DNA of 37,315 bases. Source: a virus. Taxonomy: Duplodnaviria > Caudoviricetes. The position numbers and the translations under genes are program-made. The notes beneath the pieces were generated by a model. The model saw nothing but the letters and a program-made list of their open reading frames with translations. It did no database searches and was not told the DNA's origin. The stretch is from positions 1 to 37,315 of the IMG/VR virus record IMGVR_UViG_3300025352_000001; one strand, written 5' to 3'. This document shows, one piece after another, positions 3,358 to 36,309 of this stretch. Every line of letters starts with the position of its first letter. Position 1 is the first letter of the stretch.

Positions 3358-3639
3358 ATGGAAAATCAACATAGAGAAATATCAGGCTACCGGGATCTGA
3401 CCCATGATGAGATCGACCTGATGAACGAGGTCAAGGACATCGAGGCCAAAGTCCTGTCCATCCAGAAAAGGATCATGCGCCAGCTCTCCGCCCAGGAAGA
3501 GAGCGGCACACCGGAAGACAAGCACCGTCTACAGGAAGCCCTCGCTCACCGATGGGCTCAGATTGCTCGGACGGACCTTGAGAAAGGTTTCATGGCGCTG
3601 GTGAGAGCCGTCGCCCAACCCCAGCCGAGAGAGGAATAA
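3358..3639 (+). CDS. acb2: Acb2-like anti-CBASS cyclic oligonucleotide sponge protein
   Basis: MENQHREISGYRDLTHDEIDLMNEVK...RWAQIARTDLEKGFMALVRAVAQP matches the Acb2 pattern as I recall it (NQHxxIxGYRDLxxxEIDxMN; RWxxIxxTD..GxMAxxRAxAQP). A GAGGA RBS is present. Confidence 0.88.
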   Translation: MENQHREISGYRDLTHDEIDLMNEVKDIEAKVLSIQKRIMRQLSAQEESGTPEDKHRLQEALAHRWAQIARTDLEKGFMALVRAVAQPQPREE

Positions 3640-18912: not shown

Positions 18913-21900
18913 GTGGCGCAAAACAACCCGTTCTTTCAGAACCCCCTGGACAAAGTCACCGACGATATCCTCGCGAAGAAGTACGAGCTCCCGGCGTTAA
19001 GCGGTATTCGGGCTCAGTCTGACGGGCGAATTGAGGCATCCAGGGACGTGGACGGGATTCTCCCTCCTGAGCAATATCAGCCGCTATTCATCAACGCCTC
19101 CCAGAAGTACGGGGTCCCGGCGAACATCCTCATGTCCCTGGCTCAGCAAGAGTCGTCGTACAACCCTGAAGCTATCGGCCCGGAGACGAAGTGGGGCAAA
19201 GCCAAAGGGATGATGCAGTACATTGACGACACCGCCAAGGGCATGGGAATCGACCCGATGGACCCGGCGCAGTCAGTGGATGCCGCCGCGAAGCAGTTCA
19301 AGCAAAGAATCGACGCCGGATACAGCGTTGAAGAGGCCGTCATGGCCCATCACGCCGGCGACAACCGTGAACAGTGGGGTCCGAAGACCCGCAAGTATGT
19401 GCGCGAGGTTCTGGGTCGCGCTGGGGGCATCGCTGCACGGTATCAGCCAAAAGACCCCACGGACGGTGGTCGCTACCGAGATCTGACCCCCGAGGAACTG
19501 GCCGTCTATCAGGCCAAGCAGTCCGGCATTGGCCCAAAAACTACCGATTCTGAGCCCCCGGGACTGATAGAGCGTGCAGGTAGCGCGCTCAGCGGGCTTG
19601 TGAGAGAGCCGGGCACGCGCGAGCAGATGGAGCCCACCGCCGAGCTTGGCCAGGCCGCCCGTAAGATTGCCGACGCTGGCCGACGTGGTCCGTCTCCCTC
19701 GGGCGGACGTGCTGGAGAGCCACAGGTAGATCAAGAGGTCGACGCCTTCACCGGCGCTGCCCCGAAGAACCCCGGAGCAGACCAGAAGCTCCCCCCTACC
19801 GAAGAGCCAGCCGACGAAGAGCTCGACAACAGCGGCCGTTCCCGCCTGGAAGAGCTCGAGGCCCTTGCCGCAGAGCAGCCAGAAGAAGTCGACGCCTTCA
19901 CCGGCGCAGGACCCGTCAAAACCACGACTCCGCTGGACCTCTATCGCAAAGGCATCGCGCTGCTCCAGCGTCCAGCAAGCGAGTTCGACTTCCTCACAGC
20001 CAAGATGGACGGCCCCGACAAAGACGAGAAAGACGAGAGGAGAGGACAGTTCGCTGATGCAGAGGTCGACGCCTTCACTGGCGCTGACACGAAGGCTCAG
20101 TACACGACGATCGATGGCTGGATCAAGAACCTGGTGGGTTCAGCAACGTCCGGCGTAGGCACCGCGGCGGGGTCGACTGTCGAGGGTTCTGGACTCATTG
20201 CCCAGCAGATATCGAACGACCGGAGCAACAGGAAGCTCCAGGCAGCGGCGACTCGGCTCGATAACTCTCGGACGAACTTGGGCCTCAGGCTGGAAGATGT
20301 CGAAGGTGAGGACGACGCTACGCGACTGCGTGTCGCAGAGGCGTATGCTGACGATATTTTCAAGCGCGAGAAAGAGTTTCACGCCGCTGCCGTGGAGTGG
20401 GCCAACAAGGAACCAAGCGCCGCCGCCGACTGGATTCGTGGACTTGGCGTCGACATCAAAAAACTCTCGGAGCAGTTACAGGCCGACCCCGAGTACGATG
20501 GCAAATTGACAGATGTTTCAGCAGGCATTGGCTCGATGCTGATCTACCTCGGCCCTGGCTTCCTCACGACGCTAATGACTCGCGGCGCACCGATGGCCAT
20601 CAGGCAGATCGCCGGCCTTGCTGGGGGCGCTTCCTTGGCTGGCCCCGCAGGTGCAGCAGAGGCATACAACCGGGCGATCCAGTATGGCCTACCGGAAGAA
20701 CTGGCCATCAAAACGTCCATGAAGGGTATTCCGGCCGGCATCATCCAGGTCGCCCCGCTCGCTGTCATCCTCAAGGGTGTCGCCCCCGGGGTGCGCGGCA
20801 AGGTTCTGTCCCAGTTCCGCCACATACTTGAAGTATTCGGCGCTGAGTTCGTAGCGGAGGGTGCCGGCGCTGTCATGCAAAACCTCGTCGAGAAATCCTA
20901 CAATCCTGAGAAAGGGGTTTGGGACGACTCCCTGTACCAGGCGGCGATAGGCGGAAGCTCCGCTGCCCTCATCTCTTTGGGCATCCAGATCGCCACCCGC
21001 GGCAAGGGTATCCGGCCCATGGACAAGGGTGAGATCGCAGGCCGGGAACTGGACCGCCAGGTCAAGGGCTCAGCGTGGCTAGAGAGCGCCGAAATGGAGG
21101 CGTTACGCAGGCTGGACCCCCATTCATACGTCCAGACCGTGCGCGATCAAGCAGAGAGCATCGACCCGGAAGCCGTCCTGTCTGGTGACCTCAGCGTTGC
21201 GCAGAAAACCCCGGACGGCCCGATAGAAGCCGCCGCCGCGGAGACCTCTGGTGAAGAGCGTGTCGCCAATGTCCCTGGTGAGCGCGTCACCGTGGCCACC
21301 CTAACCGGCAATATCAACGGCATCGTCAATCTCTATGAAGAGGACGGACCTGGCGAGTTCCAGGTTCAGATCCTGGCCGAAAATGGCGAAATGTACGTTT
21401 TCGACCAGAACAGCGATGTGACCATTGTTCGCACCGGCGTACTCGATGGCGAGACCACTGCCAGGCAGGGTGATGACACCACGCCCCCCTCCACCGTGAC
21501 GCCGATGGCGAACATGGACCCGATCGACACGGCAGCAGCAGAGAAAGAGCGCGAGGAAAACCCTGAGGGTCTTGATCCGGGATACAGAGGCCGTGTCGAA
21601 ACTCGTACCGGCTGGCTTGAGGATGTTGCGGAGTCCCCCGGTGACGTACAAGACCTGATCGACGCCGAAATGCAGGACGGATCGGCACCCGACCAGAGCG
21701 AAGCCAGGACGGCCTTCCTCGATGCCGCACGGTCGAAATACGACGAGCTCACCGAGAAGACTCAGAAGGACCGAGCCGAGAAGTCATCGAAAGAGAAGTC
21801 AGCTCAGGACCGGTTCCCGCAGGACCCGATGGACCGACACAAGTTCGGCACGCCAAACCCTGATGTTCGTCTCCAGGAAGGCCGCAAGGAGCGCCGTGAC

Positions 21901-24900
21901 ACGGGCCGCGGGACCTTCGTCGCTAGCCAGCCAAGCACAGGCCGAGAGCTCGCCCGCGGAACGACCCAGGAAGAGGCTTTCAGCAATGCTGAGGCCAAGC
22001 TCAAGGCCGCTTCCGAAAAGGCAGAGCCAGCCCCTGAAACCACCGAATCCGGGGAAGCTATCGTTGGCCACACCACCAAGAAGGGAAAGGACCTTCGCGG
22101 CGTGTTGCGTGACATTCCGCTGTCGAAAGCCAAGGAGATCGACCCGTCCGCCTTCCGCAAGAGCGGAAAGTCGTTTATCCGCCTCGACAGTCTCGAGAAG
22201 GCGCGCGAGAAATTGAACGCCGAGTGGGAAGCCGAGTGGGAAGAGCAGGGCGTCGAGAACCCAGAGCAGGGCGACTTTGATACCGTTGAGGTTACAGGAG
22301 GAACGCGCCAAGAGGGCCAGGTCGACAAGCCGCTGACCTATACCGGCTACAACGGTGAAGAGCGCACCGCGCTCAGCTACCAGTTGGTGGGCGACTATCG
22401 TATCGCCATGGTGGGCAATAACGTTTATGAGGTGGTCGACCCCGATGGCCGGGCCGTCAGCCAAAAAGCCACACTAGACTTCGCCGTCAAGGACGCCAAC
22501 CGCCTACAGGGGCGACGGGCCCAGCCCGAGGCCGGTGACCGGAAAGCACAAGGCGGAGTAGCCTACTCAGAAGACATGCCTCGCAGGGTACCCGACGATG
22601 TTCGTCGCCAGGGCGATGCTGAGACGAAGGCATGGTATCAGGGGTATGATAGCGCACTTGAAAGAGATCGCGCCGCCATCCCTCCCCCGGCCAACCTCAA
22701 CCCGAGTTCGGAGGCAGGAAGCCCCGAGTACCAGGAGCGGGCGAAGGACCGCCTCGAGAGGATCGCTACCGCGGATTCTGTCGGCGCGCTCAACGACATC
22801 GTAGGGGAGTCGTGGGCCGACCAGGGGCGCACGAAGTCGAGCTTCTTTGAATTGCAGACGGCCGCCACTACTCGCTGGCAGGAGCTCTACAACCAGACTG
22901 AGGGCGGCGTTGCTCCTCGTCGGCCGTACCATGATGAAGATGTCAAAAAGCCCAAGGAGGCGGAAAAGGCCCGGACGAAAACACCCGAGGTCGCGCCCGC
23001 GGCCCCGCCAGCCGCCGACGACTTCAAGGAAGGCCCCGAGCAGGCCACTCAGACGTTCCGCGACGAGGAATCTGGCGTCACCGCCCACGTCATACCGAGC
23101 AAGCAGCGTCCGAACAAGCCGTTCAAGGTGCTCGTGCTGGACGACAGCGGGAAGTCCATTGGGACCACGCTCACCCCAACCGAGGAAATGGCGACAGCCA
23201 AGGCCCGGGAGGCTGTGGGGCTGCCGGAACAGGAAGCGACCGACGACTACGACGCCAAAGCCCACAAGAAAACAGCACCAGACGATCCCGTTCCTTCCGA
23301 CTTCCCTGAAGGATTCGAGCCCTACCGGGCCAATATTCGCGGCAAGGGCGAAACATGGGCCGTACCGGCAGTGCGCGGTCAGCGTGGCGTGGGCGGCGAC
23401 ACTCTGCATGACTCCTTGGACGAAGCACTGACCCAGGCGCAGAGCAACGTGCGCCAGGAGGATCTCCAGGCGCAGAACCAACGCGACACGGACGCCCAGG
23501 TTGCCCAGGAGGGCGACAGCGAGGCAGCCCGCCAGTCCGAGCTGGCCGAGATTGGCGAGATCCTCGGAATCCCCAAGATGCGAGCAGGCCGCGCGCGCGA
23601 TACGCTGAATAAGCGGGCCAACTTCAACGGCCGAGAAATGACCCACAAGGCGCGCATCGAGCAGGTGGTCGAGCAGGGCGCGGTGATCGAAGGCGAGGGC
23701 CCCGCCCGTGAACTAGTGTTCGGCGATAACAAGGGGTATGACCAGAAAACGCTGACCAAGACCGGCATGGACTATGCTGAGGCGCTGATCGGGCGTCGGG
23801 GCCTTGCAGTGACAGCACCAGAAGACGCGGCCAAAGTGGAGCAGCTAAATCGCCTGAAAGCTGACATGAACGCCCTGGCCGACAGAGCCGAAAAAGCCGG
23901 TTATACAGAGCTGGCTTCAGATCTGCGCATGCAGTATTCAACGGTAAAACCTGTTCGTGGCGACATAGTGTTCAGAGATATTAACGCGGCCAAAGTTGAC
24001 GACATTCTTCGCGCCCGTGAGCCAGCGGTGGTTAAGGCTGAGAGAAAAGCTGCAATAGCCGCAGGAGGTGCAGCACCCAGTACCCAGGCCACCAGCGAGA
24101 CCCAAGCAACAGTTACAACGCCGGGAGGAGAGACGTTTAGGGATACACGAGGGCAGGGCGAACGGTTCCACGGCACCAACCAAGCAATCGAAGGACTTAA
24201 CTCGTATAGCTACTCAGCTCAGAACTTTTACGGCCAAGGTTTTTACACTACTGACGCAGTAGATATTGCCAAAGGGTATGGACGCAAAGGTCGTGGTGGT
24301 GAGGCACAGCTGTATACTGTGACGGTTACTGGGAGCCCCTTGCTATACGACTTAAATGCTGAGATGGATGCGCAAACACGCGCCAAGGTGGCTGCGCTGC
24401 TCGGTGACACGCTTGATTTGACAGATGGAAGCATTACTACCCTTGGCGAGGCTATGGACGCTGCGAGGGAATCTGCTGGGGACATTACACCGGCAGATGA
24501 GGTACAGGAAAGTTTTGACGCGGTAGTCGCTAGCCTTGAGGCCAGAGGGTACCAAGGCTTCCGCCATGTTGGTGGCCAGCGCACTGGCAGCCCAGCGCAT
24601 GACGTGCGTATCTACTGGACCCCGGCCGACACCCTTGAGGTGATGCCCACCGAGTTTGATGCCTACAGAGCAGACGCAGGAGGTGCAGCACCCAGTACCC
24701 AGGCCACCGACAGCCCAACTGGACAGGCAGAAGCGAGTGTCGAGGAAAAGATCAAGGCAGATAGCTGGGGTGCCAACAACACCCTGGTCACCCAAGATCG
24801 TGCCGAAATCCTACGCGCCAAGCTCCGAGCAAAGTTCGGAACCCTAAACAGCGGGTTCGACCCGGAAATGCTGGCCGCGGGTGCCGAGCTGGCAGCTTTC

Positions 24901-27900
24901 AACATGGAAGCAGGCGTTCGCAAGTTCGGCGAGTTTGCCCGCGCCATGGCGGCCGACATCGGTGTCGGTATCAACGATCTTCGACCCTACCTGAGAGGCT
25001 GGTACAACGGCGGCCGCGACATGATGGAGGACAACGGTCTCGACGTGTCCGACATGGATGGGCCGGATCAAGTCCGCGACCAAATGAAGGGCCTCTTCAA
25101 CGCCGAGGAAACGTCCGTCACGGAAGCCATGGAGGAAGCCACAGAGCGCCGTCAGGAGGCTGCAGACGACGCCGCTGGAGCAACCAGCCCGAGTGCCAAG
25201 GCCAGCGCAAACGAACGCCTCAGGGACCAGGAAGAGCGCGTCACGAAGCTCAAGGAGGAAACTCGGGAGCGCGCTATTGTCGATAGCCCTGAGGGAGAGG
25301 GCCGCACAACCCCTACTGAGAGGACTCAAGATGACACCCGAGCAGATTCAACAGATCGTGATCAATCACTGGATGACGTACTTCCGGAAGGAGACACTGC
25401 GTTTGACCCCGCAGGAGATCCAGCGCCAATCGAAGGCATCCGCCCGGCTGTCGATGAGGGAGATGGAGGCGCTCCAGGGGATCGGACTCGACCCGAAGAC
25501 GGCATGGAGCGAGGCGAGCAGACTCTTCCTGACAGCCCCGCCGTCGCCGGAGGAAATAGCGGACGAGCAGGCGGAGTTGAAGGAGGTGGACGAGCAGGCG
25601 GTGCCCGCTCTCCCTCCGCTGGCCCGGTAAACCGCACCGAGAACCGGCCCAACACCCTGAAAGGCGAGAGCCCAGGAAACTTCCGCATCACGCCGGAAAT
25701 GGGCATCGGGACAGGCACCGCCGGCCAGAAGCTCAAGGACAACATGGCGGCCATTCGCCTGGCGAAGAAGATCAAGGCGGAAGGCCGGTTCGCGACCCGA
25801 GAAGAGCAGGCCGCACTGGCCAGGTTCGTCGGTTGGGGCGGCCTGAAAACCGTATTCGACCCCAAAAAGGCCGGTAAGACTGACCAGTTCGGTCGTGCCC
25901 AGGACGAGCTCAAGGGGCTGCTCACAGCCGAAGAATACGCCGACGCCAATAGCTCAATCCAGAACGCGCATTTCACGTCAGAATCTGTCGTCGGAATGAT
26001 GTGGCGCGCTGCCCGTCATTTCGGCTTCACAGGCGGACGTGCGCTCGAGCCCACCGTGGGGTCCGGTAACTTCATCGGCATGGCCCCGGATGATTTCGCC
26101 GCGGCTACCGAGTGGTTCGCCTCCGAGCTTGATCCGGTGAGCAGCAGTATTGCCGGCCTCCTGTATCCGGACTCGACGATCCTCGAGGCCACCGGCTTCC
26201 AGGAAGCGCACTTCGCCAGCAACGTCATGGACATTTCCATCGGCAACCCGCCGTTTGGTCAGATAACCATTCGCTCCCGCTCGAAGAAGTGGAAGCACCT
26301 GGACGGGATGAAGATCCACAACTACATCATCGCAAAAGCCGGCGAGCACCTTCGCCCGGGTGGGATCATGCCGATGGTGGTTACTCACCGCTTCCTGGAT
26401 ACCGCCAACCCAGAGGCCCGCAGTGAGCTCGCCAAGAACTTTCGGTTCCTCGGCGCCGTTCGGCTGCCAAACAACGCTTTCGCTGCGAACGCCGGTACTG
26501 ACGTGACCACCGACCTCGTGTTCCTCCAGAAGCTCCGTGCCGATGAGAGCCCTGACCTTTCAGCGTCCTGGCTGAACACCAATGGCGAGATCGATGTCGA
26601 TGGCGTGAAGATCCGTGTCAATGGCTACTACCAGGAGAACCCGACCAACATCCTCGGCAAGAGCACGTTGGGCGGCTCCATGTATGCGGCGGAAGGCGAG
26701 TACACCGTAGAGAGTGATGGCCGCGATCTGGACGCCTCCTTCAACAAGATATTGGCGGAAGACTGGGCTTCTCTTGCCGGCGCGATGAAGCCGACCCAGG
26801 GCGACCTGGATGCGGCCCCGGTCTTTCTGGAGAAGAGCGACCTGGCCATCGGCAGCATGATGCTGAACGCGGACGGCCAGATCATCTATCGCGACTTGGA
26901 TGACTCCGTGGGCAACGCGGTCATCAGGCAGGTCACCCCCGAGAGCTACTGGAAGGAGAAGGCTGCCCAGTGGGGTGATGCCATCGAAGCCGTTGCAGCC
27001 ATCAAGACAGCGCGTGAGGTCGGAGATCCGGTCGCCAAGGACCAAGTGCAGGCTCTCGTCGATGCAGCTGGCGTCGCTACCACTGCCAGCGGCGGCAAGA
27101 AGCCGAAGCCGACGAAGGCCGAGCAGGCCATTTACGACGTGCTCGATGCGACCGCGAACCCAAGGTTTACCTGGAGGCACGACGACGGACTGGCCGCGAT
27201 GGAGGCCACTCTTGAGCGCCGCCGTCTTGGCCGCCAGGGCTTCGACACCCTCCGTAAGCTCCTGGACATCAGGAACCGTGCCCTTGCACTGCTCCAGGCC
27301 GAGAAGACCAACGACCCGGCCATGGACAGCCTACGCGCCGATCTCAACGTCGCCTACGACCAGTTCGTGAGCAACTACGGACTGATCTCAGAGCCCAAGA
27401 ACATTTCCCTGTTGACCAGGGACATCGGCATCGAGTCCGGACTTGAGGCCAACTACCAGCCAGAGGTCAAGGCCGCCGAGGCGAAGAGGAAAAACTCCAA
27501 GCCCAGAAAGGCCACTGCTGAAAAGCACGCCATGTTCAGCGAGCGTGTCACTTGGCCAAAGGAAGAGATCACCTCCGCCGATAACGCTCTGGATGGCATG
27601 AATATCTCGCTCTCCGAGCGCGGTCGCCTGGATGTCGCGTATATCTCGGCGCTCACCGGGCGAACAGGTTCGCAGGTCATTGAAGATCTGACCACCGGGA
27701 AGGACCCGGCGGCCTTCTACGATCCCGAGCAGCTCGATTACATTCCCTATGATGAATACCTGTCGGGTAACGTGAATCGAAAGCTCGAGGTGGCCAGGGC
27801 AGACAACCTTGAGGCGAACATTACGGCCCTCGAGAAGGCTCTTCCTGCCCCGCTGACGAAAGAGAGGATCACTCCCAATATCCGCGGCACCTGGATTCCA

Positions 27901-30900
27901 GACACCATCTTCGAGGACTTTCTCACGGCCCTTGGCGTCGTGAAGCCCAGCGTCCTGGTGCAGCCGACTATTGGCCGGATAAGCGCCAAGGATTCAGTTG
28001 CACAACTGACCGACCTTGGCACCCAGTTCGATGACGCTGATAGATCGGTCATCGACCTGTTCAACGCCGCCGTGTCCGGCAAGCCTATCCGTGTGATGCG
28101 ATCTGTCCCAGATAGCAGTCCCCGCGAGGACAAGCCGGCATCGCAGCGGGCCACGGCCAAGGCCGAACGAATGTCCAGCGTCTTCCGGGAGTGGGTCTAC
28201 AGTGAGCCTGACCGTGCAGCGGTAGTGGTCGACGCCTACAACCGCGTCATGAACACCAACCGAGAGCGTGACTGGAACGGCGAGAAGTTCCTCAAGCCGG
28301 TCGGGCAGAGCCCGTCAGTGAAGCTCCGCCGCACGCAGAAGAACGCCGCGTGGAGGATGATCCAGCGTCGCAACATGCTGATGGATCATCTCGTCGGAAG
28401 CGGGAAAACAATATCCGTCATCACCGGTGTCATGGAGCGCAAGAGACTCGGCCTGTCCCGCAAGCCAGCGATCGTGGTCCCGAACCACCTTGTCGTCCAG
28501 TGGGCCAGCGAGTTCTACCAGCTATATCCGGGCGCCAAGATACTGGCGGCCACCCCCGACGATTTCTCGAAGAACAACCGTCGCCGGATGTTCGCAAGGA
28601 TCGCCTCGGGCAACTATGACGCCATCATCATGGGTCACTCATCTTTCGGCTTCATCAGTCCGCCGGATGCCGACACCAAGATGATCATCACTGAGAACAA
28701 GGCTCAGTTGAAGGAAGCTCTCGACGCAGCCAAGGAATCCGGAGAAAGCGGTCGGTCCCTGAACCAGATTCAGGCGAAGCTCGACGCCTACGACGAGCAG
28801 CTCAAGAACCTATCTGAGCGTCCCCGCGACGAAATTGGAATCGACATCGAGTCCATGGGCATCGACTATTTGGCGGTCGATGAGTGCTTCTCTTACGACA
28901 CGGAAGTTGAGACAGATCAAGGCATGATGAAGATTGGCGACATCGTGGAAGGGAAGCTGCCTGTCAGAGTCAAAAGTGTTGATTCTTCAACTCATGCGGT
29001 ACAGTGGAAGCCAGTCACCAACTGGTACGCTCACCAGCGTCGCCTTCCATTGATCGAGGTATTCCATGAGTCAGGATCGTTCCTCTGCACCCCAAACCAC
29101 AACATCTGGGTCGAAGGCTACGGCTACAAGCGAGCCGGAGACATCGGTCCTCAAGACCGACTCATCACCACCACCGGCGCCTACTCCGAAGTCCACCAGG
29201 CGAACCCGCGTTACAGCGCCGTGTCGATGGTGCGGGACGGACATTACGTTCGCGGACAACATGCCGAGGAAATACTGCAGCGTGTCCTGCAAGATGTACG
29301 CCCAGCACCAGAACCCGGAATCGCACGCGAAATGGAAGGCCGCGATGCGTCCTACCTGGGAGAACTCTCCGCTCAAGGGCAGGAAGTACCCGGAAGCATC
29401 GGAGAGAATGACCGCCAACAACCCCATGCGCTCGCTGGAGACGCGCAAGAAAGTGTCCAGGACGCTGATAACGATGGGACACCGTCCGGTGATACGCGGG
29501 AGCAATGGGTTCCTGACAGAACCTCAAATCTTGCTGGCGGATCTCACCGGTCTGCCGACGGAAGTAGTGGTGAACACGAAATCAATCCGCCATCTGATGG
29601 ACAAGCTGCCCAACCACTACAAGATCGACCTGGCGTGCCGGGACCGGAAGCTGGCAGTGGAGATCGACGGGAATTCGCACAGAACGACGAAAGCCAAAGA
29701 ACGGGACGCGAAGAAGGACCGGGCATTGTCACTTCTCGGGTGGTCGGTATTGCGATTCTCGAACCAGACAGTGATGGAGAATACCGATTCGGTGGTCGAG
29801 ACCATTCGGTCATTTACGACATCGAGGTAGCTGACAACCACAACTACTTCGCGAATGGGGCGTTGGTCTCCAATTCCCACATGTTCAAAAACTTGGAGTA
29901 CGCCACCAGCGGCGAGCGCGTCGTCGGCATGACCAACCCGAAGGGGTCTGCAAGGGCCTTCGACCTCTACACCAAGGTCCGAGGCATCCAGGAGCGCGGC
30001 GGCGGCGCCGTGTTTGCCACCGGGACCCCGGTATCCAACTCGCTGGTCGAGCTCTACACGATGATGCGCTACCTGGCGCATGACCAGCTCAAGGAACGCG
30101 GCCAGGATCACTTCGACGCTTGGTCTGGGGCCTATGCCGTCACCGAGACGCGCATGGAGTACACCGCGACACAGAAGCTCAAGCCGCGTCGCGTCCTGTC
30201 AGGGCTTGCAAACCTGGATGGCCTTGGCCAGCTTTATCGTGACTTCGCCGACATCCTAACCATGTCCGACCTAAAGCGGGTCTACACCGAGGAAAAGGTC
30301 GACGAGAACAAGCGCACCGGAGGAAAAGAGCGCACCGACTTCCCAATTCCCAAGGTAAAGGGTGGCGGTCGCCAGCTAGACTCGGCCGGCATTACGGAGC
30401 AGCAGTCCGAGTACATGGACTACCTGGTTGCCCGCATGAAGGGTATCGAGGCGAATACCTCCAACCCGGATTACAAGAAGGTCGACAACGCTCTATGGGT
30501 GATGACCGATGCGCGGAAGATGTCTTTGGACATCCGTATCATCGATCCGCTTGCCGAGCGCGACGAGACTGGCAAGGTCATGAGGTCCGCTCGCCGGATC
30601 AAGGATATTTACGACCGCTGGGATGCCGACAAGGGCGCTCAGTTGGTATTCAGTGACCTCTCCACCCCGTCAAAGACCTCGGCGAAGGAAGCCAAGGGAA
30701 TCGTGAAGTCCGCAGCCACTCTCATCTTCGGTGAGAATCCGGGCAAGGCGGCGCTGAAACGAATCAAGGGCATGAGCTACCGGGACCAGTGGAAGTGGAT
30801 GGAATCCGCCGCGGAAAAGGCGCTCGAAGATCCGGCTATCTCCACCGAGAAGCAGGACAAGATCGAAGAGTTCATGGGCGAGAACGCCCTGGCCGACGCG

Positions 30901-33900
30901 ACAATGCTGGTGGCCGACAAGGGCTTCTCTGTTTACGACGACCTCCGGACCGTACTTGAGGAAATGGGCATCCCATCACATGAGATCGCCTTCATCCACG
31001 ATTACAACTCGCCAGAAGCGAAGGACCGCCTCTTCTCACAGGTCAACTCCGGGGCTGTCCGCGTGCTCATTGGGTCAACCGACAAGATGGGCACCGGCAC
31101 TAACGCGCAGGAGAGGCTCGTTGCGCTTCACCACCTGGACGCGCCGTGGCGCCCCTCTGATGTGGAGCAACGCGAAGGCCGTATCATTCGTCAGGGAAAC
31201 CTCCTGCACATGCGTGACCCGGATGGCTTCGAGGTCGAGATCACCAACTACTCCACCAACGGCACTTTCGATACGGTGATGTGGCAGATTCTCGAGCGCA
31301 AGGCGGCGTCCATCGAGCAATTCCGTAGCACCGGCATCGACAATATCACCGAGGACGAGGGTGATTCCGACCAGTACGCCGAATTCATGGCGACCTCGAC
31401 GGGTAACCCGATATTCAAGCTCAAGCTCGAGGCTGAGCGTGATCTGCTCAACATCCAGGCAGAGATCGGCGGCAACCTGATCGCTTCACGAAACGCGAAA
31501 GAGTTCGTCGCAAGCTACGACAGCAAGCGGGAAGAGCTCGCCGACCGCAGCGAGTACCTGAGCAGAGCCGAGGGCGGGAACATCAGCTATAACGGCGCCA
31601 CCGGTGACCCGGCTGACCTGAAGACCGCCATGGATGCCGAAAAGGCCAGGTTCCACGAGGACTTTGCCGCGTGGGAGGCCGCGATACCGGCCGCCAAGGA
31701 AGCGCGTGAAGCGGCCCGAGCCGAGGGCAAGAAGAAGCTCCCGGCTCTGCCGCCGCGCCCGACTCCAAGCGGCATTCTTTCTGACGCAGTCCAGAAGAAG
31801 AGCGCCTACGCCCGAGTGGTGAAGGCCGCCCTGGTGGAAGTTGGAATTGGTGGCGGGATGAACACCTCGAGCAAGGAAGTTGATCTCAAGGTCGGCAGCA
31901 TCGGAGTCACGGTTAGGCGGCGGGCAAACCCTTTCAATGACAACTCTAGCTACGAAGTCCTCGTAAAAACAGGCGACTCCAAAGAGGTTTCCATTGCGAG
32001 CTCACAGGTCCTTAACCCTGAAAACTCCGAGGCCCTGGCCAAGGGCTTCATGCCGGACCGGATGCAGCGAGCCATCGCCGACAGCAAGGAATCCATCGAT
32101 GGTCGAATCGAGAAGATGGACTCAAGGCTCGAGCGTGAAAAAGAGCTCGCCGCCAAGGAGATCGACAGGACCCCCATAGATGAGGCCAACCAACTCGTCT
32201 CCTGGTACACCTCCCAAGTGAGCCTGGCAGAGGAAGCCTCCGACCTGCAGCGCGGCGAGAGATCGAATCGCTTCATCGCGAAGGATCAGACCAGGGACGT
32301 GGCTCAGTTTGGGGCGAAGGAGGTCGCCGAGTCCCAGTCCTTAGAGATCGAAGGCGAGGTTTACGAGACGACCGGACTCTCAGTCGGCACAGACCGCGCC
32401 AGGATGATTGACGCCACCCGTCAGTCGGATGGTCGGCGTGCCGTTGTTTCCGAAGAAAAGGGTGAAGATGGCGAGTCCAGCTACAGCGTCAGGGTCGAGC
32501 CGGACGCAGCCATAGAGCAGATGCGGAGAGCAACGGCTCAGTCCAATGCCCGGCGCCGCAACCGCAAGCCGTCGCAGAGCCCCGCAGAGGCTGAGCAGCG
32601 CATCCGCCAGGGAAGTCTTGGCGAAGTCAGCGGTCGCCTCCTGGATAGCGGCAAGATCAAGATCGACAGCGTGCTGCCATCCGGGCTGCCCACCGGCACT
32701 GCCGCCTATGTTGACGAGCAGGGTGTCATCCACCTGGTCGCCCGCAACCTGGAGCCGCAGTATGCAGAGGCAACCTTGCTCCACGAGGCGTTCCATGCCG
32801 GAGCACGGCCTCTCATTGGGAGTCGTCGCTGGAACGAACTACAGGACCGCCTTGGCAAGCTATACAGCCAGGCAGAGCGCAGTACCGGGTTCAATCGCCA
32901 GTTTTGGGACGCCGCCCGGGAAAGGATTTCCGCCGCGGAGGCTGCCGGAGACGTGATGACCGACGCCCGCCGGATCGAGGAGTTCGGGGCCTACGCTCTG
33001 GAAGAGTTCGCGAGTGCGCCGCGTACCTTGAAGGTATGGGCGAACGACATGGTCGGACGGGTCCAGGCATGGCTCCAACGGACCTTCGGCATCCAAGTAG
33101 GCCAGGTATCGCCGGCACAGCTTCGCGCCCTGGCTGCCGCCGCTCTACGCAACGGTGATATGGCCCCTAGCCCGTCGCTTTCCGTCGAAGCGCCTATCAG
33201 TCTTGTCGATGAGAACGGCAACCCCGTGCCAGAGCGGGAGCGCAAGGCCGAGGTCGCCAGGGCGGTTCGTGCTGCCCGCAAGGCGCTCTCCGTGGTCCGC
33301 AGCGAGGCAGGGGTCACCGACTTCGATGGTGGCTTCACCAGGGACATCACCAAGATTGGTACCTGGCTACATCAGCCCTACAACATTGCGAGCCTTGAGC
33401 CGCAGTTCACGCCTGTCTTCAAAACCGCGATGCGCCAGCAGCGGTTCCGGGACACGCTCATTTCGGAAATGTACCCGAAGTTCCAGAAGTACAAGGAGCT
33501 TCGCGGAAAGGGCCGAGCCAACGTCAACAAGGTCCTCGAGCTTGGTCGCTTGGCGAACCGCTCTTTCACTGACGCGCGTCTTCGCAGCGGCCTGACCAAC
33601 CCCGGCGAGAAGAGAACTACCGTCTTCGACGCGAACGGGGAGATACAGTACCGCAACCAGACCATCCACACCGCCCTTTCTGCGAAAGGCGATGTCATCA
33701 AGTTGACCGCCGAAGAGCGGGTAGCATACTTCGAGCTCCGAGAAATGTTCGATGAAGCCCTGGACCGGTTCCGCGACCAGACGCTTATCGACATGGGCAT
33801 GGGTGAGTTTTCCGGGTCACTGAATCCGCTCAAAGACATCATGGATTCGATCACTGACGACATGAGTGACGTGGTCAAGGACCGCCTGATCAACATGGCC

Positions 33901-36309
33901 AAGATGGTCGAGGAGATCGATCAGGCCAAGCGCACCGGGTACGTCCCGCTGTCCCGCTTCGGTCGATACTCGATCACGGTCAAGGAGAAGCAGGCCGACA
34001 TCAAATACGCCAGCAACCCGGAGGGCGGGTGGATCGCCAGGGATGTCCCGGACGAGTACACCGAGCTCCTGGCCTCTGTCGGCGCCACATACGACAACCT
34101 CGAAGGGGGATGGCAGGTATCTGACGGACAGAAGAGGCAACTCAACCTCGAGAACAATCGCACCATCTACAGCGAGAAGATCGACCCTGAGAGCTATCGA
34201 GGTAGATATGACGCCTACCAGGCCGCCAGGGGCAACAAGAAGATAACGGACGTGGCCTTCATCAGGGATGCCAAGGCCAGGGTCGAGCGGGAGTGGGGTG
34301 GCGAAGGCCGGCAAATCATCACGCTGGATACCAAGCGTGCGCGTCTCGATGGGACACTCAAGCTGTCAGACATCGACAGCCTGGCAGACCTGTCTCAGAT
34401 CGACACCGAGACATGGGACCGTGTCCGCGATGAGTTCGCGAAGGCCATGCGTGGCCGCGGCTTCCGAAAGCATTTCTTCCGCTCGGATAACGTCCCTGGC
34501 TACGACCTCGACTTCGAGCGGTCTATTGCCGACTACATCGCTGGAATGTCCGGTTATCTGTCTCGCCGGCACCACGAGAACCAGTGGGAAAGCGCCGTGG
34601 CCGGCGTCAAGGGTCCGGTCCTGAACAAGTATTCAAAGGAATATCGGCAGTACGTTAACGAACCGACGGAGGAATACGCCATCCTTCGCCAGGCGGGCTT
34701 CCTCTTCTACATCGCCGGCAACGTGTCGACCGCACTGCTCAACTGGACGCAGGTGCCGATCATGACCATGCCGGCGCTGTCTCAGGTGATGGGTCACACC
34801 AGGGCCGCGAGCGAGGTCACCAGGGCATACAAGGACGCCCTGGCCATGACAAGCTTCTACGACCAGGCCCGCGAGGGGTGGGTGCGTGGCGGCCCCAAGG
34901 GGATGGGTGACTCCATGCTCCAGATGTTCGATCCGAACGACGCGCCGGCAGACGTTCGCACCGAGGTCTTTGAGGCGTGGGAGGACGGGATGTTTTCTCC
35001 GCAGTTCACCCATGAAGTGATGGGGTTCACAGGCAAGAAAGACGGGTCCCCATCGGCCGCGCTCGAGAAGGGTATCGACTATATCGCGTCGGCATACACT
35101 TACATCGAGCGCTTAAACCGCCTGGTAACCTTCATCGCCGCCGTGCGGGCAGCCAAGGATCCCAAGATTGAGGCCAAGGCTCGAGAGAACCTGAAAGGCA
35201 ATGCGCTCGCCAGGCTCAACCTCCTGGATGAAACTTGGAGCCCGAAGGCTTTCGGTGAGTTCATCGTCGACGAATCGCAGTTCATGATGGGCAAGGTGAA
35301 CCGGGCCAAAATACTTCGAGGGCCAGGGGCTCCGATCTTCCAGTTCATGTCGTTCGTGATGAACTCGCTGCAAGCATGGTATCGCTGGTCTCGAGTGAAC
35401 GGTGGGTCCGGGAAGATGGCCACCGCCTACTCCATCGGCGCCGTCGCTGCCCTGTCAGGGGTATGGGGCGTTCCTCTCCTCGACCCGCTCCGCGCCGCCT
35501 TCGAGGCACTCTGGAGGGAGATCACCGGCGAGGACGAGGACATCAAGTACAACCTCCGCGAGTGGATCTCCCGGGAGACGGGTCAGAACTGGCTCGGTGA
35601 AATCGCCGACAAGGGGGCGCTCTATCCGCTTGGCGCGGACATGAGCGGCCGTATCGGCTTTATGAATATGCTCCCTGGCACGTCATCAGTGGTCGACGCC
35701 TTGGGCATCCCGGGTGACCTCCTGCTCGGCCGTCCGTATCGCGCCACGAAAGAGATCCAAAGCGAAGACTACTGGGGGGCCGCTGCAGAGCTTTCGCCGA
35801 CCTTCGTTCGCAACATTATCACCGCTCAGAAGTGGCGGAGCGAGGGCGTAAGGAGCCGCACCGGAAGGCAGTACCTGACGCCGAAGCAGATCCCTCAGAA
35901 GGCGCTCTGGTTGAAGTCATTCGGCATCCAGCCGTCGATCGTCAGCGACGCCTATCAGTACAAATACTCCGTTTACCGCGAGCAGACCAAGATGGACGAC
36001 GCTACCGCACGTTGGGTCAACAAGATCGCCTCGGCCTACGCCGCCGAAGCCCGCAATACTGACCCGGATCGGGCGCCGGAGCTCGCCTCACGCATCGATC
36101 GACTTATCGACGGGGTTTTGGAGTACAACGCCGCCAACCCTGATTCGCCGGTGAACGTGACGAACGACAAGATCCGCAACAGGGCGAATGAGTACCTCTA
36201 TGGTCTCGGGGCGACAGCCGGGGGAGAACGCAAGTCAGCGCGGGCAGCCGCCGAGCGGGCCAGGGAGGTCTTCAACCTCAACCCTATCCTGTTCCCCGAG
36301 GAAGAGTGA
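18913..36309 (+). CDS. Giant DarB-like polyvalent virion protein (lytic transglycosylase, ART-like, N6-adenine methylase, SNF2 helicase with intein, zincin-like peptidase, PLxRFG)
   Basis: SLT: QQESSYNP..AKGMMQY. ART-like: FHGT..YGQGFYTT. MTase: LEPTVGSGNF and IGNPPF. Helicase: HLVGSGKT, VDE/SHMFKN, FATGTPVSNS and QREGRIIRQGN. Peptidase: LLHEAFH. PLxRFG: YVPLSRFGRY. Confidence 0.9.
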   Translation: MAQNNPFFQNPLDKVTDDILAKKYELPALSGIRAQSDGRIEASRDVDGILPPEQYQPLFINASQKYGVPANILMSLAQQESSYNPEAIGPETKWGKAKGMMQYIDDTAKGMGIDPMDPAQSVDAAAKQFKQRIDAGYSVEEAVMAHHAGDNREQWGPKTRKYVREVLGRAGGIAARYQPKDPTDGGRYRDLTPEELAVYQAKQSGIGPKTTDSEPPGLIERAGSALSGLVREPGTREQMEPTAELGQAARKIADAGRRGPSPSGGRAGEPQVDQEVDAFTGAAPKNPGADQKLPPTEEPADEELDNSGRSRLEELEALAAEQPEEVDAFTGAGPVKTTTPLDLYRKGIALLQRPASEFDFLTAKMDGPDKDEKDERRGQFADAEVDAFTGADTKAQYTTIDGWIKNLVGSATSGVGTAAGSTVEGSGLIAQQISNDRSNRKLQAAATRLDNSRTNLGLRLEDVEGEDDATRLRVAEAYADDIFKREKEFHAAAVEWANKEPSAAADWIRGLGVDIKKLSEQLQADPEYDGKLTDVSAGIGSMLIYLGPGFLTTLMTRGAPMAIRQIAGLAGGASLAGPAGAAEAYNRAIQYGLPEELAIKTSMKGIPAGIIQVAPLAVILKGVAPGVRGKVLSQFRHILEVFGAEFVAEGAGAVMQNLVEKSYNPEKGVWDDSLYQAAIGGSSAALISLGIQIATRGKGIRPMDKGEIAGRELDRQVKGSAWLESAEMEALRRLDPHSYVQTVRDQAESIDPEAVLSGDLSVAQKTPDGPIEAAAAETSGEERVANVPGERVTVATLTGNINGIVNLYEEDGPGEFQVQILAENGEMYVFDQNSDVTIVRTGVLDGETTARQGDDTTPPSTVTPMANMDPIDTAAAEKEREENPEGLDPGYRGRVETRTGWLEDVAESPGDVQDLIDAEMQDGSAPDQSEARTAFLDAARSKYDELTEKTQKDRAEKSSKEKSAQDRFPQDPMDRHKFGTPNPDVRLQEGRKERRDTGRGTFVASQPSTGRELARGTTQEEAFSNAEAKLKAASEKAEPAPETTESGEAIVGHTTKKGKDLRGVLRDIPLSKAKEIDPSAFRKSGKSFIRLDSLEKAREKLNAEWEAEWEEQGVENPEQGDFDTVEVTGGTRQEGQVDKPLTYTGYNGEERTALSYQLVGDYRIAMVGNNVYEVVDPDGRAVSQKATLDFAVKDANRLQGRRAQPEAGDRKAQGGVAYSEDMPRRVPDDVRRQGDAETKAWYQGYDSALERDRAAIPPPANLNPSSEAGSPEYQERAKDRLERIATADSVGALNDIVGESWADQGRTKSSFFELQTAATTRWQELYNQTEGGVAPRRPYHDEDVKKPKEAEKARTKTPEVAPAAPPAADDFKEGPEQATQTFRDEESGVTAHVIPSKQRPNKPFKVLVLDDSGKSIGTTLTPTEEMATAKAREAVGLPEQEATDDYDAKAHKKTAPDDPVPSDFPEGFEPYRANIRGKGETWAVPAVRGQRGVGGDTLHDSLDEALTQAQSNVRQEDLQAQNQRDTDAQVAQEGDSEAARQSELAEIGEILGIPKMRAGRARDTLNKRANFNGREMTHKARIEQVVEQGAVIEGEGPARELVFGDNKGYDQKTLTKTGMDYAEALIGRRGLAVTAPEDAAKVEQLNRLKADMNALADRAEKAGYTELASDLRMQYSTVKPVRGDIVFRDINAAKVDDILRAREPAVVKAERKAAIAAGGAAPSTQATSETQATVTTPGGETFRDTRGQGERFHGTNQAIEGLNSYSYSAQNFYGQGFYTTDAVDIAKGYGRKGRGGEAQLYTVTVTGSPLLYDLNAEMDAQTRAKVAALLGDTLDLTDGSITTLGEAMDAARESAGDITPADEVQESFDAVVASLEARGYQGFRHVGGQRTGSPAHDVRIYWTPADTLEVMPTEFDAYRADAGGAAPSTQATDSPTGQAEASVEEKIKADSWGANNTLVTQDRAEILRAKLRAKFGTLNSGFDPEMLAAGAELAAFNMEAGVRKFGEFARAMAADIGVGINDLRPYLRGWYNGGRDMMEDNGLDVSDMDGPDQVRDQMKGLFNAEETSVTEAMEEATERRQEAADDAAGATSPSAKASANERLRDQEERVTKLKEETRERAIVDSPEGEGRTTPTERTQDDTRADSTDRDQSLDDVLPEGDTAFDPAGDPAPIEGIRPAVDEGDGGAPGDRTRPEDGMERGEQTLPDSPAVAGGNSGRAGGVEGGGRAGGARSPSAGPVNRTENRPNTLKGESPGNFRITPEMGIGTGTAGQKLKDNMAAIRLAKKIKAEGRFATREEQAALARFVGWGGLKTVFDPKKAGKTDQFGRAQDELKGLLTAEEYADANSSIQNAHFTSESVVGMMWRAARHFGFTGGRALEPTVGSGNFIGMAPDDFAAATEWFASELDPVSSSIAGLLYPDSTILEATGFQEAHFASNVMDISIGNPPFGQITIRSRSKKWKHLDGMKIHNYIIAKAGEHLRPGGIMPMVVTHRFLDTANPEARSELAKNFRFLGAVRLPNNAFAANAGTDVTTDLVFLQKLRADESPDLSASWLNTNGEIDVDGVKIRVNGYYQENPTNILGKSTLGGSMYAAEGEYTVESDGRDLDASFNKILAEDWASLAGAMKPTQGDLDAAPVFLEKSDLAIGSMMLNADGQIIYRDLDDSVGNAVIRQVTPESYWKEKAAQWGDAIEAVAAIKTAREVGDPVAKDQVQALVDAAGVATTASGGKKPKPTKAEQAIYDVLDATANPRFTWRHDDGLAAMEATLERRRLGRQGFDTLRKLLDIRNRALALLQAEKTNDPAMDSLRADLNVAYDQFVSNYGLISEPKNISLLTRDIGIESGLEANYQPEVKAAEAKRKNSKPRKATAEKHAMFSERVTWPKEEITSADNALDGMNISLSERGRLDVAYISALTGRTGSQVIEDLTTGKDPAAFYDPEQLDYIPYDEYLSGNVNRKLEVARADNLEANITALEKALPAPLTKERITPNIRGTWIPDTIFEDFLTALGVVKPSVLVQPTIGRISAKDSVAQLTDLGTQFDDADRSVIDLFNAAVSGKPIRVMRSVPDSSPREDKPASQRATAKAERMSSVFREWVYSEPDRAAVVVDAYNRVMNTNRERDWNGEKFLKPVGQSPSVKLRRTQKNAAWRMIQRRNMLMDHLVGSGKTISVITGVMERKRLGLSRKPAIVVPNHLVVQWASEFYQLYPGAKILAATPDDFSKNNRRRMFARIASGNYDAIIMGHSSFGFISPPDADTKMIITENKAQLKEALDAAKESGESGRSLNQIQAKLDAYDEQLKNLSERPRDEIGIDIESMGIDYLAVDECFSYDTEVETDQGMMKIGDIVEGKLPVRVKSVDSSTHAVQWKPVTNWYAHQRRLPLIEVFHESGSFLCTPNHNIWVEGYGYKRAGDIGPQDRLITTTGAYSEVHQANPRYSAVSMVRDGHYVRGQHAEEILQRVLQDVRPAPEPGIAREMEGRDASYLGELSAQGQEVPGSIGENDRQQPHALAGDAQESVQDADNDGTPSGDTREQWVPDRTSNLAGGSHRSADGSSGEHEINPPSDGQAAQPLQDRPGVPGPEAGSGDRREFAQNDESQRTGREEGPGIVTSRVVGIAILEPDSDGEYRFGGRDHSVIYDIEVADNHNYFANGALVSNSHMFKNLEYATSGERVVGMTNPKGSARAFDLYTKVRGIQERGGGAVFATGTPVSNSLVELYTMMRYLAHDQLKERGQDHFDAWSGAYAVTETRMEYTATQKLKPRRVLSGLANLDGLGQLYRDFADILTMSDLKRVYTEEKVDENKRTGGKERTDFPIPKVKGGGRQLDSAGITEQQSEYMDYLVARMKGIEANTSNPDYKKVDNALWVMTDARKMSLDIRIIDPLAERDETGKVMRSARRIKDIYDRWDADKGAQLVFSDLSTPSKTSAKEAKGIVKSAATLIFGENPGKAALKRIKGMSYRDQWKWMESAAEKALEDPAISTEKQDKIEEFMGENALADATMLVADKGFSVYDDLRTVLEEMGIPSHEIAFIHDYNSPEAKDRLFSQVNSGAVRVLIGSTDKMGTGTNAQERLVALHHLDAPWRPSDVEQREGRIIRQGNLLHMRDPDGFEVEITNYSTNGTFDTVMWQILERKAASIEQFRSTGIDNITEDEGDSDQYAEFMATSTGNPIFKLKLEAERDLLNIQAEIGGNLIASRNAKEFVASYDSKREELADRSEYLSRAEGGNISYNGATGDPADLKTAMDAEKARFHEDFAAWEAAIPAAKEAREAARAEGKKKLPALPPRPTPSGILSDAVQKKSAYARVVKAALVEVGIGGGMNTSSKEVDLKVGSIGVTVRRRANPFNDNSSYEVLVKTGDSKEVSIASSQVLNPENSEALAKGFMPDRMQRAIADSKESIDGRIEKMDSRLEREKELAAKEIDRTPIDEANQLVSWYTSQVSLAEEASDLQRGERSNRFIAKDQTRDVAQFGAKEVAESQSLEIEGEVYETTGLSVGTDRARMIDATRQSDGRRAVVSEEKGEDGESSYSVRVEPDAAIEQMRRATAQSNARRRNRKPSQSPAEAEQRIRQGSLGEVSGRLLDSGKIKIDSVLPSGLPTGTAAYVDEQGVIHLVARNLEPQYAEATLLHEAFHAGARPLIGSRRWNELQDRLGKLYSQAERSTGFNRQFWDAARERISAAEAAGDVMTDARRIEEFGAYALEEFASAPRTLKVWANDMVGRVQAWLQRTFGIQVGQVSPAQLRALAAAALRNGDMAPSPSLSVEAPISLVDENGNPVPERERKAEVARAVRAARKALSVVRSEAGVTDFDGGFTRDITKIGTWLHQPYNIASLEPQFTPVFKTAMRQQRFRDTLISEMYPKFQKYKELRGKGRANVNKVLELGRLANRSFTDARLRSGLTNPGEKRTTVFDANGEIQYRNQTIHTALSAKGDVIKLTAEERVAYFELREMFDEALDRFRDQTLIDMGMGEFSGSLNPLKDIMDSITDDMSDVVKDRLINMAKMVEEIDQAKRTGYVPLSRFGRYSITVKEKQADIKYASNPEGGWIARDVPDEYTELLASVGATYDNLEGGWQVSDGQKRQLNLENNRTIYSEKIDPESYRGRYDAYQAARGNKKITDVAFIRDAKARVEREWGGEGRQIITLDTKRARLDGTLKLSDIDSLADLSQIDTETWDRVRDEFAKAMRGRGFRKHFFRSDNVPGYDLDFERSIADYIAGMSGYLSRRHHENQWESAVAGVKGPVLNKYSKEYRQYVNEPTEEYAILRQAGFLFYIAGNVSTALLNWTQVPIMTMPALSQVMGHTRAASEVTRAYKDALAMTSFYDQAREGWVRGGPKGMGDSMLQMFDPNDAPADVRTEVFEAWEDGMFSPQFTHEVMGFTGKKDGSPSAALEKGIDYIASAYTYIERLNRLVTFIAAVRAAKDPKIEAKARENLKGNALARLNLLDETWSPKAFGEFIVDESQFMMGKVNRAKILRGPGAPIFQFMSFVMNSLQAWYRWSRVNGGSGKMATAYSIGAVAALSGVWGVPLLDPLRAAFEALWREITGEDEDIKYNLREWISRETGQNWLGEIADKGALYPLGADMSGRIGFMNMLPGTSSVVDALGIPGDLLLGRPYRATKEIQSEDYWGAAAELSPTFVRNIITAQKWRSEGVRSRTGRQYLTPKQIPQKALWLKSFGIQPSIVSDAYQYKYSVYREQTKMDDATARWVNKIASAYAAEARNTDPDRAPELASRIDRLIDGVLEYNAANPDSPVNVTNDKIRNRANEYLYGLGATAGGERKSARAAAERAREVFNLNPILFPEEE
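24060..24708 (+). repeat. 34-bp perfect direct repeats (24060-24093 and 24675-24708) flanking the ART-like domain
   Basis: CGCAGGAGGTGCAGCACCCAGTACCCAGGCCACC occurs twice, 615 bp (205 codons) apart. Both copies encode AGGAAPSTQAT. Confidence 0.92.
25331..25630 (+). CDS. Nested +1-frame gene inside the giant ORF; 99-aa helical protein of unknown function
   Basis: GAGAGGA RBS precedes ATG 25331. The G/C third-position bias switches to this frame. The sequence is protein-like (MTPEQIQQIVINHWMTYF...AWSEASRLFLTAPP), while the host frame turns low-complexity. Confidence 0.72.
   Translation: MTPEQIQQIVINHWMTYFRKETLRLTPQEIQRQSKASARLSMREMEALQGIGLDPKTAWSEASRLFLTAPPSPEEIADEQAELKEVDEQAVPALPPLAR
28885..29874 (+). 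mobile_element. Intein (330 aa) in helicase motif II
   Basis: Begins CFSYDTEV (block A), has CTPNH (block B), and ends VIYDIEVADNHNYFANGALVSN followed by Ser+1. Removal restores AVDE-SHMFKN. Confidence 0.95.
29066..29830 (+). CDS. Overprinted Zn-finger + DUF559/Vsr-like endonuclease in the +1 frame of the intein (putative homing endonuclease)
   Basis: GAGGT lies 5 nt before the ATG. Motifs are CRWC..YCSVSC, NNPMRSLETRKKVS (NUMOD3-like) and YKIDLA...LAVEIDGNSH...DAKKDRAL..LGWSVLRF. Confidence 0.88.
   Translation: MSQDRSSAPQTTTSGSKATATSEPETSVLKTDSSPPPAPTPKSTRRTRVTAPCRWCGTDITFADNMPRKYCSVSCKMYAQHQNPESHAKWKAAMRPTWENSPLKGRKYPEASERMTANNPMRSLETRKKVSRTLITMGHRPVIRGSNGFLTEPQILLADLTGLPTEVVVNTKSIRHLMDKLPNHYKIDLACRDRKLAVEIDGNSHRTTKAKERDAKKDRALSLLGWSVLRFSNQTVMENTDSVVETIRSFTTSR

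Follow-up and report, generated by a model that had tools for sequence, protein, structure and literature searches.

A TnpV-like gene nested in a phage DarB-like methylase-SNF2 gene, and its product as a candidate partner of the motor

A small gene inside a giant DarB-like gene

The window, by which we mean the whole stretch of 37,315 nucleotides analysed here (IMG/VR record IMGVR_UViG_3300025352_000001), is a virus record with a podophage head-tail module (portal, capsid, adaptors, fibres). Its plus strand carries, at 18913..36309, an open reading frame (ORF) for a giant polyvalent protein of 5,798 amino acids (aa) that matches phrog_10089 (DarB-like antirestriction). Inside this gene and on the same strand, in the +1 frame relative to it, lies the subject of this work, a nested gene of 99 aa at 25331..25630, running from an ATG at 25331 to a TAA at 25630, whose product is probably a TnpV-like helical protein, judging from profile, fold model and codon statistics.

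A first-pass annotation, made from the letters alone, had proposed that this ORF is opened by a ribosome-binding site (RBS), GAGAGGA, and an ATG, and both the coordinates, which are exact, and the spacing were confirmed: the Shine-Dalgarno (SD)-like GAGAGGA lies at 25318..25324 (+), 6 nt upstream of the ATG. It had also placed the stop about 50 nt before the methylase-associated region, and we measured 47 nt from the stop to NFRITPE, where that region starts. Equally borne out was its remark that the main frame shifts here to A/T-ending, D/G/R-rich codons. Across the nested ORF the giant frame encodes a linker (giant aa 2140-2239; 25330..25629, +) that composition and stop statistics mark as poor in hydrophobic residues (12%) and stop-free, with 44% D+G+R and 57% A/T-ending codons, vs 27.6% over the entire giant. 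GC3, the G+C content of third codon positions, is 0.83 in the +1 frame vs 0.43 in the giant frame, which has 0.69 and 0.81 in the two flanks. On a codon score trained with nine other genes of the window, the +1 frame reaches +19, the giant frame -4; over 114 scoring windows the difference has a median of -69.5, with only this region and the intein coming close.

Open +1 frames as long as this one are not rare in themselves, so the case for the gene rests on conservation. The probability of meeting no stop in 99 codons of the +1 frame is 0.72 given the outer protein, which makes length alone insignificant, and nine of 58 giant blocks hold an open +1 frame as long as the nested gene. Taken alone, the nested protein found no family in Pfam, PHROGs or NCBIfam and only itself in a word search; tblastn in phages gave only chance terminase rows, a PDB sequence search gave no real match, and its single-sequence fold was mediocre (pLDDT, the predicted local distance difference test, 68). 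The sequencing contigs across the gene show no variant inside it, and one contig of 390 bases (run X2) spans it with zero differing letters.

On its sequence features the host gene is an ordinary DarB-like methylase-SNF2 dyad, with a GxG[GAS] helical region, an NPP(Y/F) methylase and an SNF2-type motor in a single frame. The giant runs from a transglycosylase to a C-terminal part, and all its segments lie on the plus strand. Downstream of the nested gene come an N-terminal helical region (LPD36 position, GWGG motif) and the adenine methylase (NPPF), together at giant aa ~2255-2620 (25675..26772), the first lobe of the motor up to the intein (28213..28884; Walker A at aa 3161-3167), an intein in the Walker B region of the motor (aa 3325-3654; 28885..29874), and the remainder of the motor with its second lobe (29875..31482). 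Directly upstream of the nested gene is an unnamed helical domain, here domain X (aa ~1956-2065; 24778..25107), and before it an ART-like segment with a weak DUF3990 match (24133..24642; E=0.0012) that is absent from relatives. Domain X was found in 59 of 120 giants, mostly ~100-140 residues ahead of the methylase. In six of 242 small proteins searched (P0245, P0248, P0271, P0298, P0343 and P0353; one at E=0.006) it is fused in frame with a TnpV-like domain, in both orders.

Three further features of the window deserve mention. A second +1-frame nested gene, at 29066-29830 (+; 254 aa), sits inside the intein of the motor; it carries a DUF559 / very-short-patch-type endonuclease domain (E=2e-16), and the codon score favours its frame. 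At the end of the ART-like segment, in 24600-24710, the contigs of several runs break and differ, so this is possibly a repeat or the boundary of a variable cassette in the giant. The gene between those for portal and scaffold (3358-3639; 93 aa) has an Acb2/Tad1 hairpin domain (E=5e-15) and likely encodes an anti-defence nucleotide sponge.

Conservation of the nested layout and selection on both frames

We collected phage loci through the methylase and then translated the other frames. A first look found a +1 ORF at the same place in four of four cultured phages, and in the full set all 84 loci proved to have a nested +1-frame gene ahead of the methylase, 66 of type A and 17 of type B by profile and one, L015, by eye; P1 (L006) is excluded from this count. 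A profile built without the window scores its nested protein at E=8.5e-11. With the window included, 82 of 85 nested genes start with ATG and three with GTG, and 81 of 85 have an SD match of at least 4 nt, vs 774 of 3,890 control +1-frame ATGs, a comparison favoured by the choice of nested starts partly on SD score. The motif HW...AW.E...FL..PP suggested by the first-pass annotation held in part among 63 type-A proteins, with HW in 57, EA[WFY] in 56 and PP in 40, and AW.E in only seven.

The reverse search, in which viral loci were found through the small proteins and which shares many contigs with the methylase-found set, gave an open outer frame in 94 of 94 viral loci and a methylase in that frame in all 92 with downstream DNA, in agreement with the earlier suggestion of a small partner tied to the methylase-helicase. 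At E<=0.001 the family profile retrieves 1,329 clusters. In 21 phage records the match falls within the coding sequence of the giant, and none of the annotations gives it a separate gene. Cultured examples include PEp14 (31778-32095), Bcep22 (52337-52660), 8P and Atu_ph08; in Bcep22 (Pfam TnpV E=0.045) and Cimandef (by eye) the +1 ORFs are divergent and occupy the same spot.

The layout extends beyond phages. Among 80 genome loci, 66 are nested by loose profiles and 10 end within the open frame, and L152 and L166 have +1 ORFs recognised by eye; among 80 metagenome loci, 62 are nested and nine are incomplete. Plasmids of Enterococcus carry a nested TnpV and those of Salmonella a nested type B gene (E=4e-7), and Campylobacter and Rhodococcus plasmids have a nested gene by position only. 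Short plasmid forms and Bacteroidota forms retain just methylase, motor and partner, and what is common to all settings is the methylase-motor, not the capsid, the transglycosylase or the ART domain. Types A and B match each other weakly as profiles (probability 14.5%, E=0.002), so that it is motif, frame and position that speak for their kinship. In a methylase tree of 60 hand-chosen rows the partner types cluster (nine changes vs 31.5 when shuffled), which is not evidence of co-evolution, because kin share labels. In the same tree the partner-less Ti-plasmid methylase L182 groups with the Bcep22-type enzymes, which carry the nested gene (100/99, long branch); this hints, from sequence, at loss of the partner in the Ti lineage.

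Selection was examined in 79 distinct nested genes among the 85. In pairs 80-90% alike, differences at nested codon positions 1, 2 and 3 are 0.117, 0.084 and 0.246. Identity is higher in the nested than in the outer frame in 2,045 of 2,073 pairs, which are not independent and were aligned on the nested protein, favouring the nested frame. Synonymous resampling predicts 311.8 stops in the outer frames, vs zero observed, and would leave 3.7 of the 79 open; in ordinary genes of the window the corresponding frame is open in two of 32 blocks. A single Faecalibacterium genome holds nine tnpV copies, four nested with no outer stop and five free with three to five. Together, these comparisons indicate that both frames are under selection, as expected of an embedded gene. 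Since the small protein is constrained and the outer frame need only stay open, the small gene is suggested to be the older of the two.

With these data the possibility that the frame is open by chance is refuted, and we give it a negligible probability: the ease with which +1 frames stay open here and the lack of any family or word-search relative for the window protein alone would suit it, against which stand the motif, start, RBS and frame conserved in 84 of 84 loci, the divergence at third positions and the number of clusters retrieved. From its sequence, 25331-25630 is almost certainly a real gene, as the first-pass annotation had held.

The idea that translation restarts behind the nested stop to make the methylase was considered and rejected, as only three of 78 loci have an outer-frame start with an SD near that stop; restart being so rarely possible, the methylase-motor is likely made only by reading through. 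Near-consensus sigma-70 promoters (at most two mismatches) occur in five of 78 loci vs one of 1,560 controls, and the small gene may thus have its own transcript in some lineages. The five loci are L008 (a perfect site), L009, L011, L019 and L084, whose sites are part of the outer coding frame ahead of the nested ATG. In the window, the best site near the nested gene has six mismatches, and we claim no promoter there.

Several loci show variations on the layout. L197 carries two tandem nested TnpV-like genes in one giant, 312 and 648 nt upstream of the methylase match. L166:1287-1778 is a further +1-frame ORF with an RBS inside the open frame of the giant; it has the look of an HNH-type endonuclease by eye and gave only weak helix-turn-helix matches in Pfam. 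One plasmid record retains tnpV in its annotation, with the helicase shortened, and the annotations of L184:3462-9761 (Enterococcus plasmid) and L183:3495-10523 (Rhodococcus plasmid) keep the nested gene and start the helicase after it; the helicase frame is open across the nested gene, for 2,099 and 2,342 codons, respectively. Short motifs of the type Q(L/R)(S/D)(L/F)(F/D), which we take to resemble sliding-clamp-binding peptides, recur in the unstructured N-terminal arm of the helicase in L108, L124, L152, L181, L183 and L184.

Family, fold and predicted contact with the SNF2 motor

The first-pass annotation had ventured a TnpV-like helical fold, and this impression gained some support. Of 50 family members, 25 match Pfam TnpV (PF14198) weakly at E<=0.1, the best of them at 3.6e-5; hhalign of the family vs TnpV gives a probability of 40% and E=3e-4 over 53 columns, and searches with type-A profiles bring up canonical TnpV, with E as low as 3e-6. 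The protein of the window itself did not match the Pfam TnpV model, staying below the 27-bit cut-off. In Firmicutes, canonical TnpV (E ~1e-36 to 1e-43) likewise sits within methylase-SNF2 giants in their +1 frame, 1.2-3.4 kb ahead of the methylase, so that the genomic position (+1 frame, within the gene, upstream of the methylase) is shared with the nested family. The sequence likeness to TnpV of Tn4451-type elements is distant. Passages of PMC3158075 call TnpV a putative excisionase and passages of PMC9815147 a transposase, and these passages do not describe it as a nested gene or a motor partner.

The fold model of the nested protein is all-helical (pLDDT 84.3), with a confident core of about residues 1-70. 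Its top structural match among 48,161 chains is PG0816/DUF1896 (PDB 2apl), with Z 7.5 and a root-mean-square deviation (rmsd) of 1.8 A over 65 residues; the next row has Z 6.4, and a Z under 8 is weak for a helical bundle. Foldseek aligned the model to 2apl with rmsd 2.5 over 64 columns at E 4.7 and gave nothing at E<=0.001 in PDB or BFVD. A language-model lead to DUF1896 scored 0.79; at the sequence level no Pfam hit to DUF1896 was found among the 50 members, and hhalign gave a probability of 0.1% (with a five-sequence alignment). DUF1896 (PF08989; PG0816 of Porphyromonas gingivalis) is free-standing and has ~70 extra C-terminal residues compared with the nested protein, and its gene lies directly upstream of a DarB-like methylase in all seven Bacteroidota genomes with a match (251 searched). 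In all, the nested protein falls outside strict TnpV and DUF1896 membership, sharing with both the position and perhaps the fold.

One label can be discarded. The PHROG "endolysin" profile matches 44 of 50 members, at the extreme end of its 2,185 positions. PBC5 orf33 (L004:1292-7849) has just that length, and its tail is the nested ORF: ~45 nt upstream of the nested ATG a base is missing in PBC5, by error or by mutation, so that the giant falls into two pieces and its N-terminal half runs on in frame into the nested protein. Judging from these sequences, the fusion likely seeded the tail of PHROG 938 ("endolysin"), and we reject the identity.

For co-folding with the motor we used the pair of a relative, L094, in place of that of the window, because the motor of the window holds an intein. 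The pair comprised 918 motor-side residues and a 78-residue partner core, with 63-row alignments (A6 and A7, 63 of 65 rows; L106 and L334 left out). It scored 0.72 (runs 0.72, 0.00 and 0.74), vs 0.00 for the best of three controls; the score mark is reached by 116 of 157 solved pairs and two of 215 mismatched ones. The runs share at least 90% of contacts, with a partner pLDDT of at least 74. In the model the partner spans both lobes: its long helix lies against a helix of the second lobe and extends to Walker A and to the RQG of motif VI. Mapped by alignment onto the giant of the window, the predicted L094 contacts fall at aa 3135-3139, 3161-3167 and 3192-3203 in the first lobe, and at aa 3787-3811, 4032-4041, 4061-4064 and 4093-4095 in the second part, the last of these being what we take to be motif VI, as with the other motor motif names. 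The motor profile has three matches among 177,635 PDB sequences, all distant remodelers, which makes recall of a similar complex unlikely. Covariation between the two proteins (102 pairs, effective number 66) yielded only noise. On the strength of the co-fold model, we consider it probable that the nested product binds the motor.

A putative brake on the motor, its rivals and its meaning

The reading we favour, in which we place about even confidence and which leans on the modelled complex, is that the nested product is a dedicated partner of the motor that serves as a safety catch, or brake, on its ATPase. A small TnpV-like gene, embedded in the +1 frame of the linker ahead of the DarB-like methylase and kept, like the frame around it, by selection, would be translated from its own RBS, in the window probably off the transcript of the giant, since no sigma-70 promoter was found there. 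Its helical product is predicted to dock across both motor lobes at the ATP cleft, where it would inhibit ATP turnover rather than stimulate it, a protein across the nucleotide cleft being most simply a brake; an inhibitor was among the options of the first-pass annotation, and the predicted docking is consistent with it. The catch would keep the motor off in the producing cell and be shed as the giant and the DNA enter a new cell together, leaving the enzyme there to shield the incoming DNA from restriction. The small gene would be the older tenant and the linker a reading of its -1 frame.

SNF2 remodelers have brakes of their own, such as AutoN of ISWI and the chromodomains of Chd1, in which a helical element touches both ATPase lobes and restrains the motor. 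We use them as a working analogy and claim no homology; here the element would be a separate protein. According to passages of PMC5512222, one cell produces the DarB-like proteins, whose presumed site of action is the DNA in the next cell, so shedding of the catch at delivery would suit phages and conjugative elements equally well; passages of PMC9144972 place the DarB-like protein of JC1 in virions. Four of five free tnpV copies lie beside a large serine recombinase, and in Streptococcus suis, according to PMC9815147, cargo elements that have landed in snf2 bring a tnpV of their own. With tnpV both beside recombinases and in cargo that breaks snf2, an inhibitor acting in trans fits better than a chaperone.

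Several observations weigh against this reading. The modelled complex is that of L094, whose methylase is 60% identical to that of the window, and not of the intein-bearing copy; one of the three runs scored 0.00, the use of our own alignments means that the calibration holds only roughly, and the fold covered only the motor side. Interface residues of the partner are no more conserved than the rest (0.49 vs 0.53), and the comparison of frame identities has the bias given above. A fold model alone cannot separate an inhibitor from an activator or a chaperone. Profiles detected no partner in L137, among the genome loci, or in six of the 80 metagenome loci with the upstream frame intact; three of those 80 carry tnpV outside the open frame, and L132, a genome locus, is un-nested. 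The partner gene was likewise not found in P1 or beside the Ti-plasmid helicase, and some DarB-like enzymes may therefore manage without it.

The strongest rival, which we hold to be unlikely, is a general loading or folding chaperone that keeps the giant soluble and competent for head packaging or conjugative export, in the manner of Ulx, which helps to localize DarB in P1. The product is small and mildly acidic (median net charge -4), is encoded in the gene of its client and is predicted to bind the motor; a listing in PMC9024508 gives P1 Ulx as "Aids DarB localization", and the virion location of the JC1 protein (PMC9144972, in the passages cited above) suits this role as well. However, the partner is predicted to sit over catalytic motifs of a folded motor with both its lobes, satellites that break snf2 retain tnpV, and Ulx, a separate gene downstream of darB, has no match to the family profiles. 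A role specific to packaging into capsids is unlikely too, because the same gene occurs in plasmids and conjugative elements; the first-pass annotation had named a packaging or loading chaperone among its options.

Somewhat less credible still is a positive subunit, a clamp that would close both lobes, stimulate translocation and be delivered with the giant, with the tnpV of satellites recruiting the helper enzyme. Near-universal retention suits an obligatory subunit, and some helicase activators also bridge both lobes; but the simpler effect of contacts at Walker A and motif VI would be to obstruct the nucleotide site, and the P1 and Ti forms lack a detected partner.

That the gene is real and has its main target elsewhere, on the methylase side or in domain X, we regard as improbable. 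In the majority of phage loci the gene stops immediately at the methylase-associated helices, DUF1896 touches or overlaps the beginning of these helices, and the fusions with domain X could be read in this sense; against it, domain X is missing from about half of the giants, the Firmicutes gene lies kilobases away from the methylase and it was the motor that passed the co-fold test.

The antidote to the ART-like domain put forward by the first-pass annotation, or a function that has nothing to do with the giant, for example as the excisionase that TnpV was once supposed to be, is very improbable, because the ART-like segment occurs in none of 119 other giants and none of 94 loci and PF18760, presumably ART-PolyVal, on 19 of the 120 giants listed, whereas the nested gene is near-universal, its modelled product is all-helical and 92 of 92 viral loci link it to the methylase-motor.

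Returning to the brake, a broader and distinctly more tentative proposal is that TnpV, DUF1896 and the hidden phage genes form one old family of trans-acting brakes for DarB-like motors, written inside the motor gene so that the two are not separated and shed on delivery, the enzyme being on only in the newly entered cell, with the free tnpV of mobilisable satellites switching off the motor of a helper.

Among the known systems close to this one is P1 DarB, whose polyvalent methylase-SNF2 dyad, as outlined in PMC5512222, shares with our host gene the LPD36-position helices, the NPPF methylase and the SNF2-type motor; the same source describes DarB as packaged in the virion and protecting DNA from restriction, and TnpV, DUF1896 and overlapping genes go unmentioned in its main text.

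Whole genes inside another gene in a shifted frame have precedents. The products of Rz and Rz1 act together. Passages of PMC9144972 note Rz1-in-Rz embedding in Bcep22-like phages, and PMC11855218 a hidden HNH gene in a phage methylase insertion. Unlike in these cases, the nested product here is a predicted regulator of the enzyme in the host frame, that frame is only a tether across the nested gene, and the arrangement is shared by phages, plasmids and conjugative elements from several phyla. A literature search, with most subscription papers and the supplements of PMC5512222 outside its scope, found no description of the nested gene.

Long, conserved same-strand gene-in-gene layouts are rare in bacteria and phages, and this one is common to cultured phages, plasmids and gut conjugative elements. 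It would give two orphan families, TnpV and DUF1896, a testable function and would bring to light a component of DarB-type anti-restriction that has been overlooked. A deletion or a transposon hit in the linker of such giants would also take out a second gene without notice.

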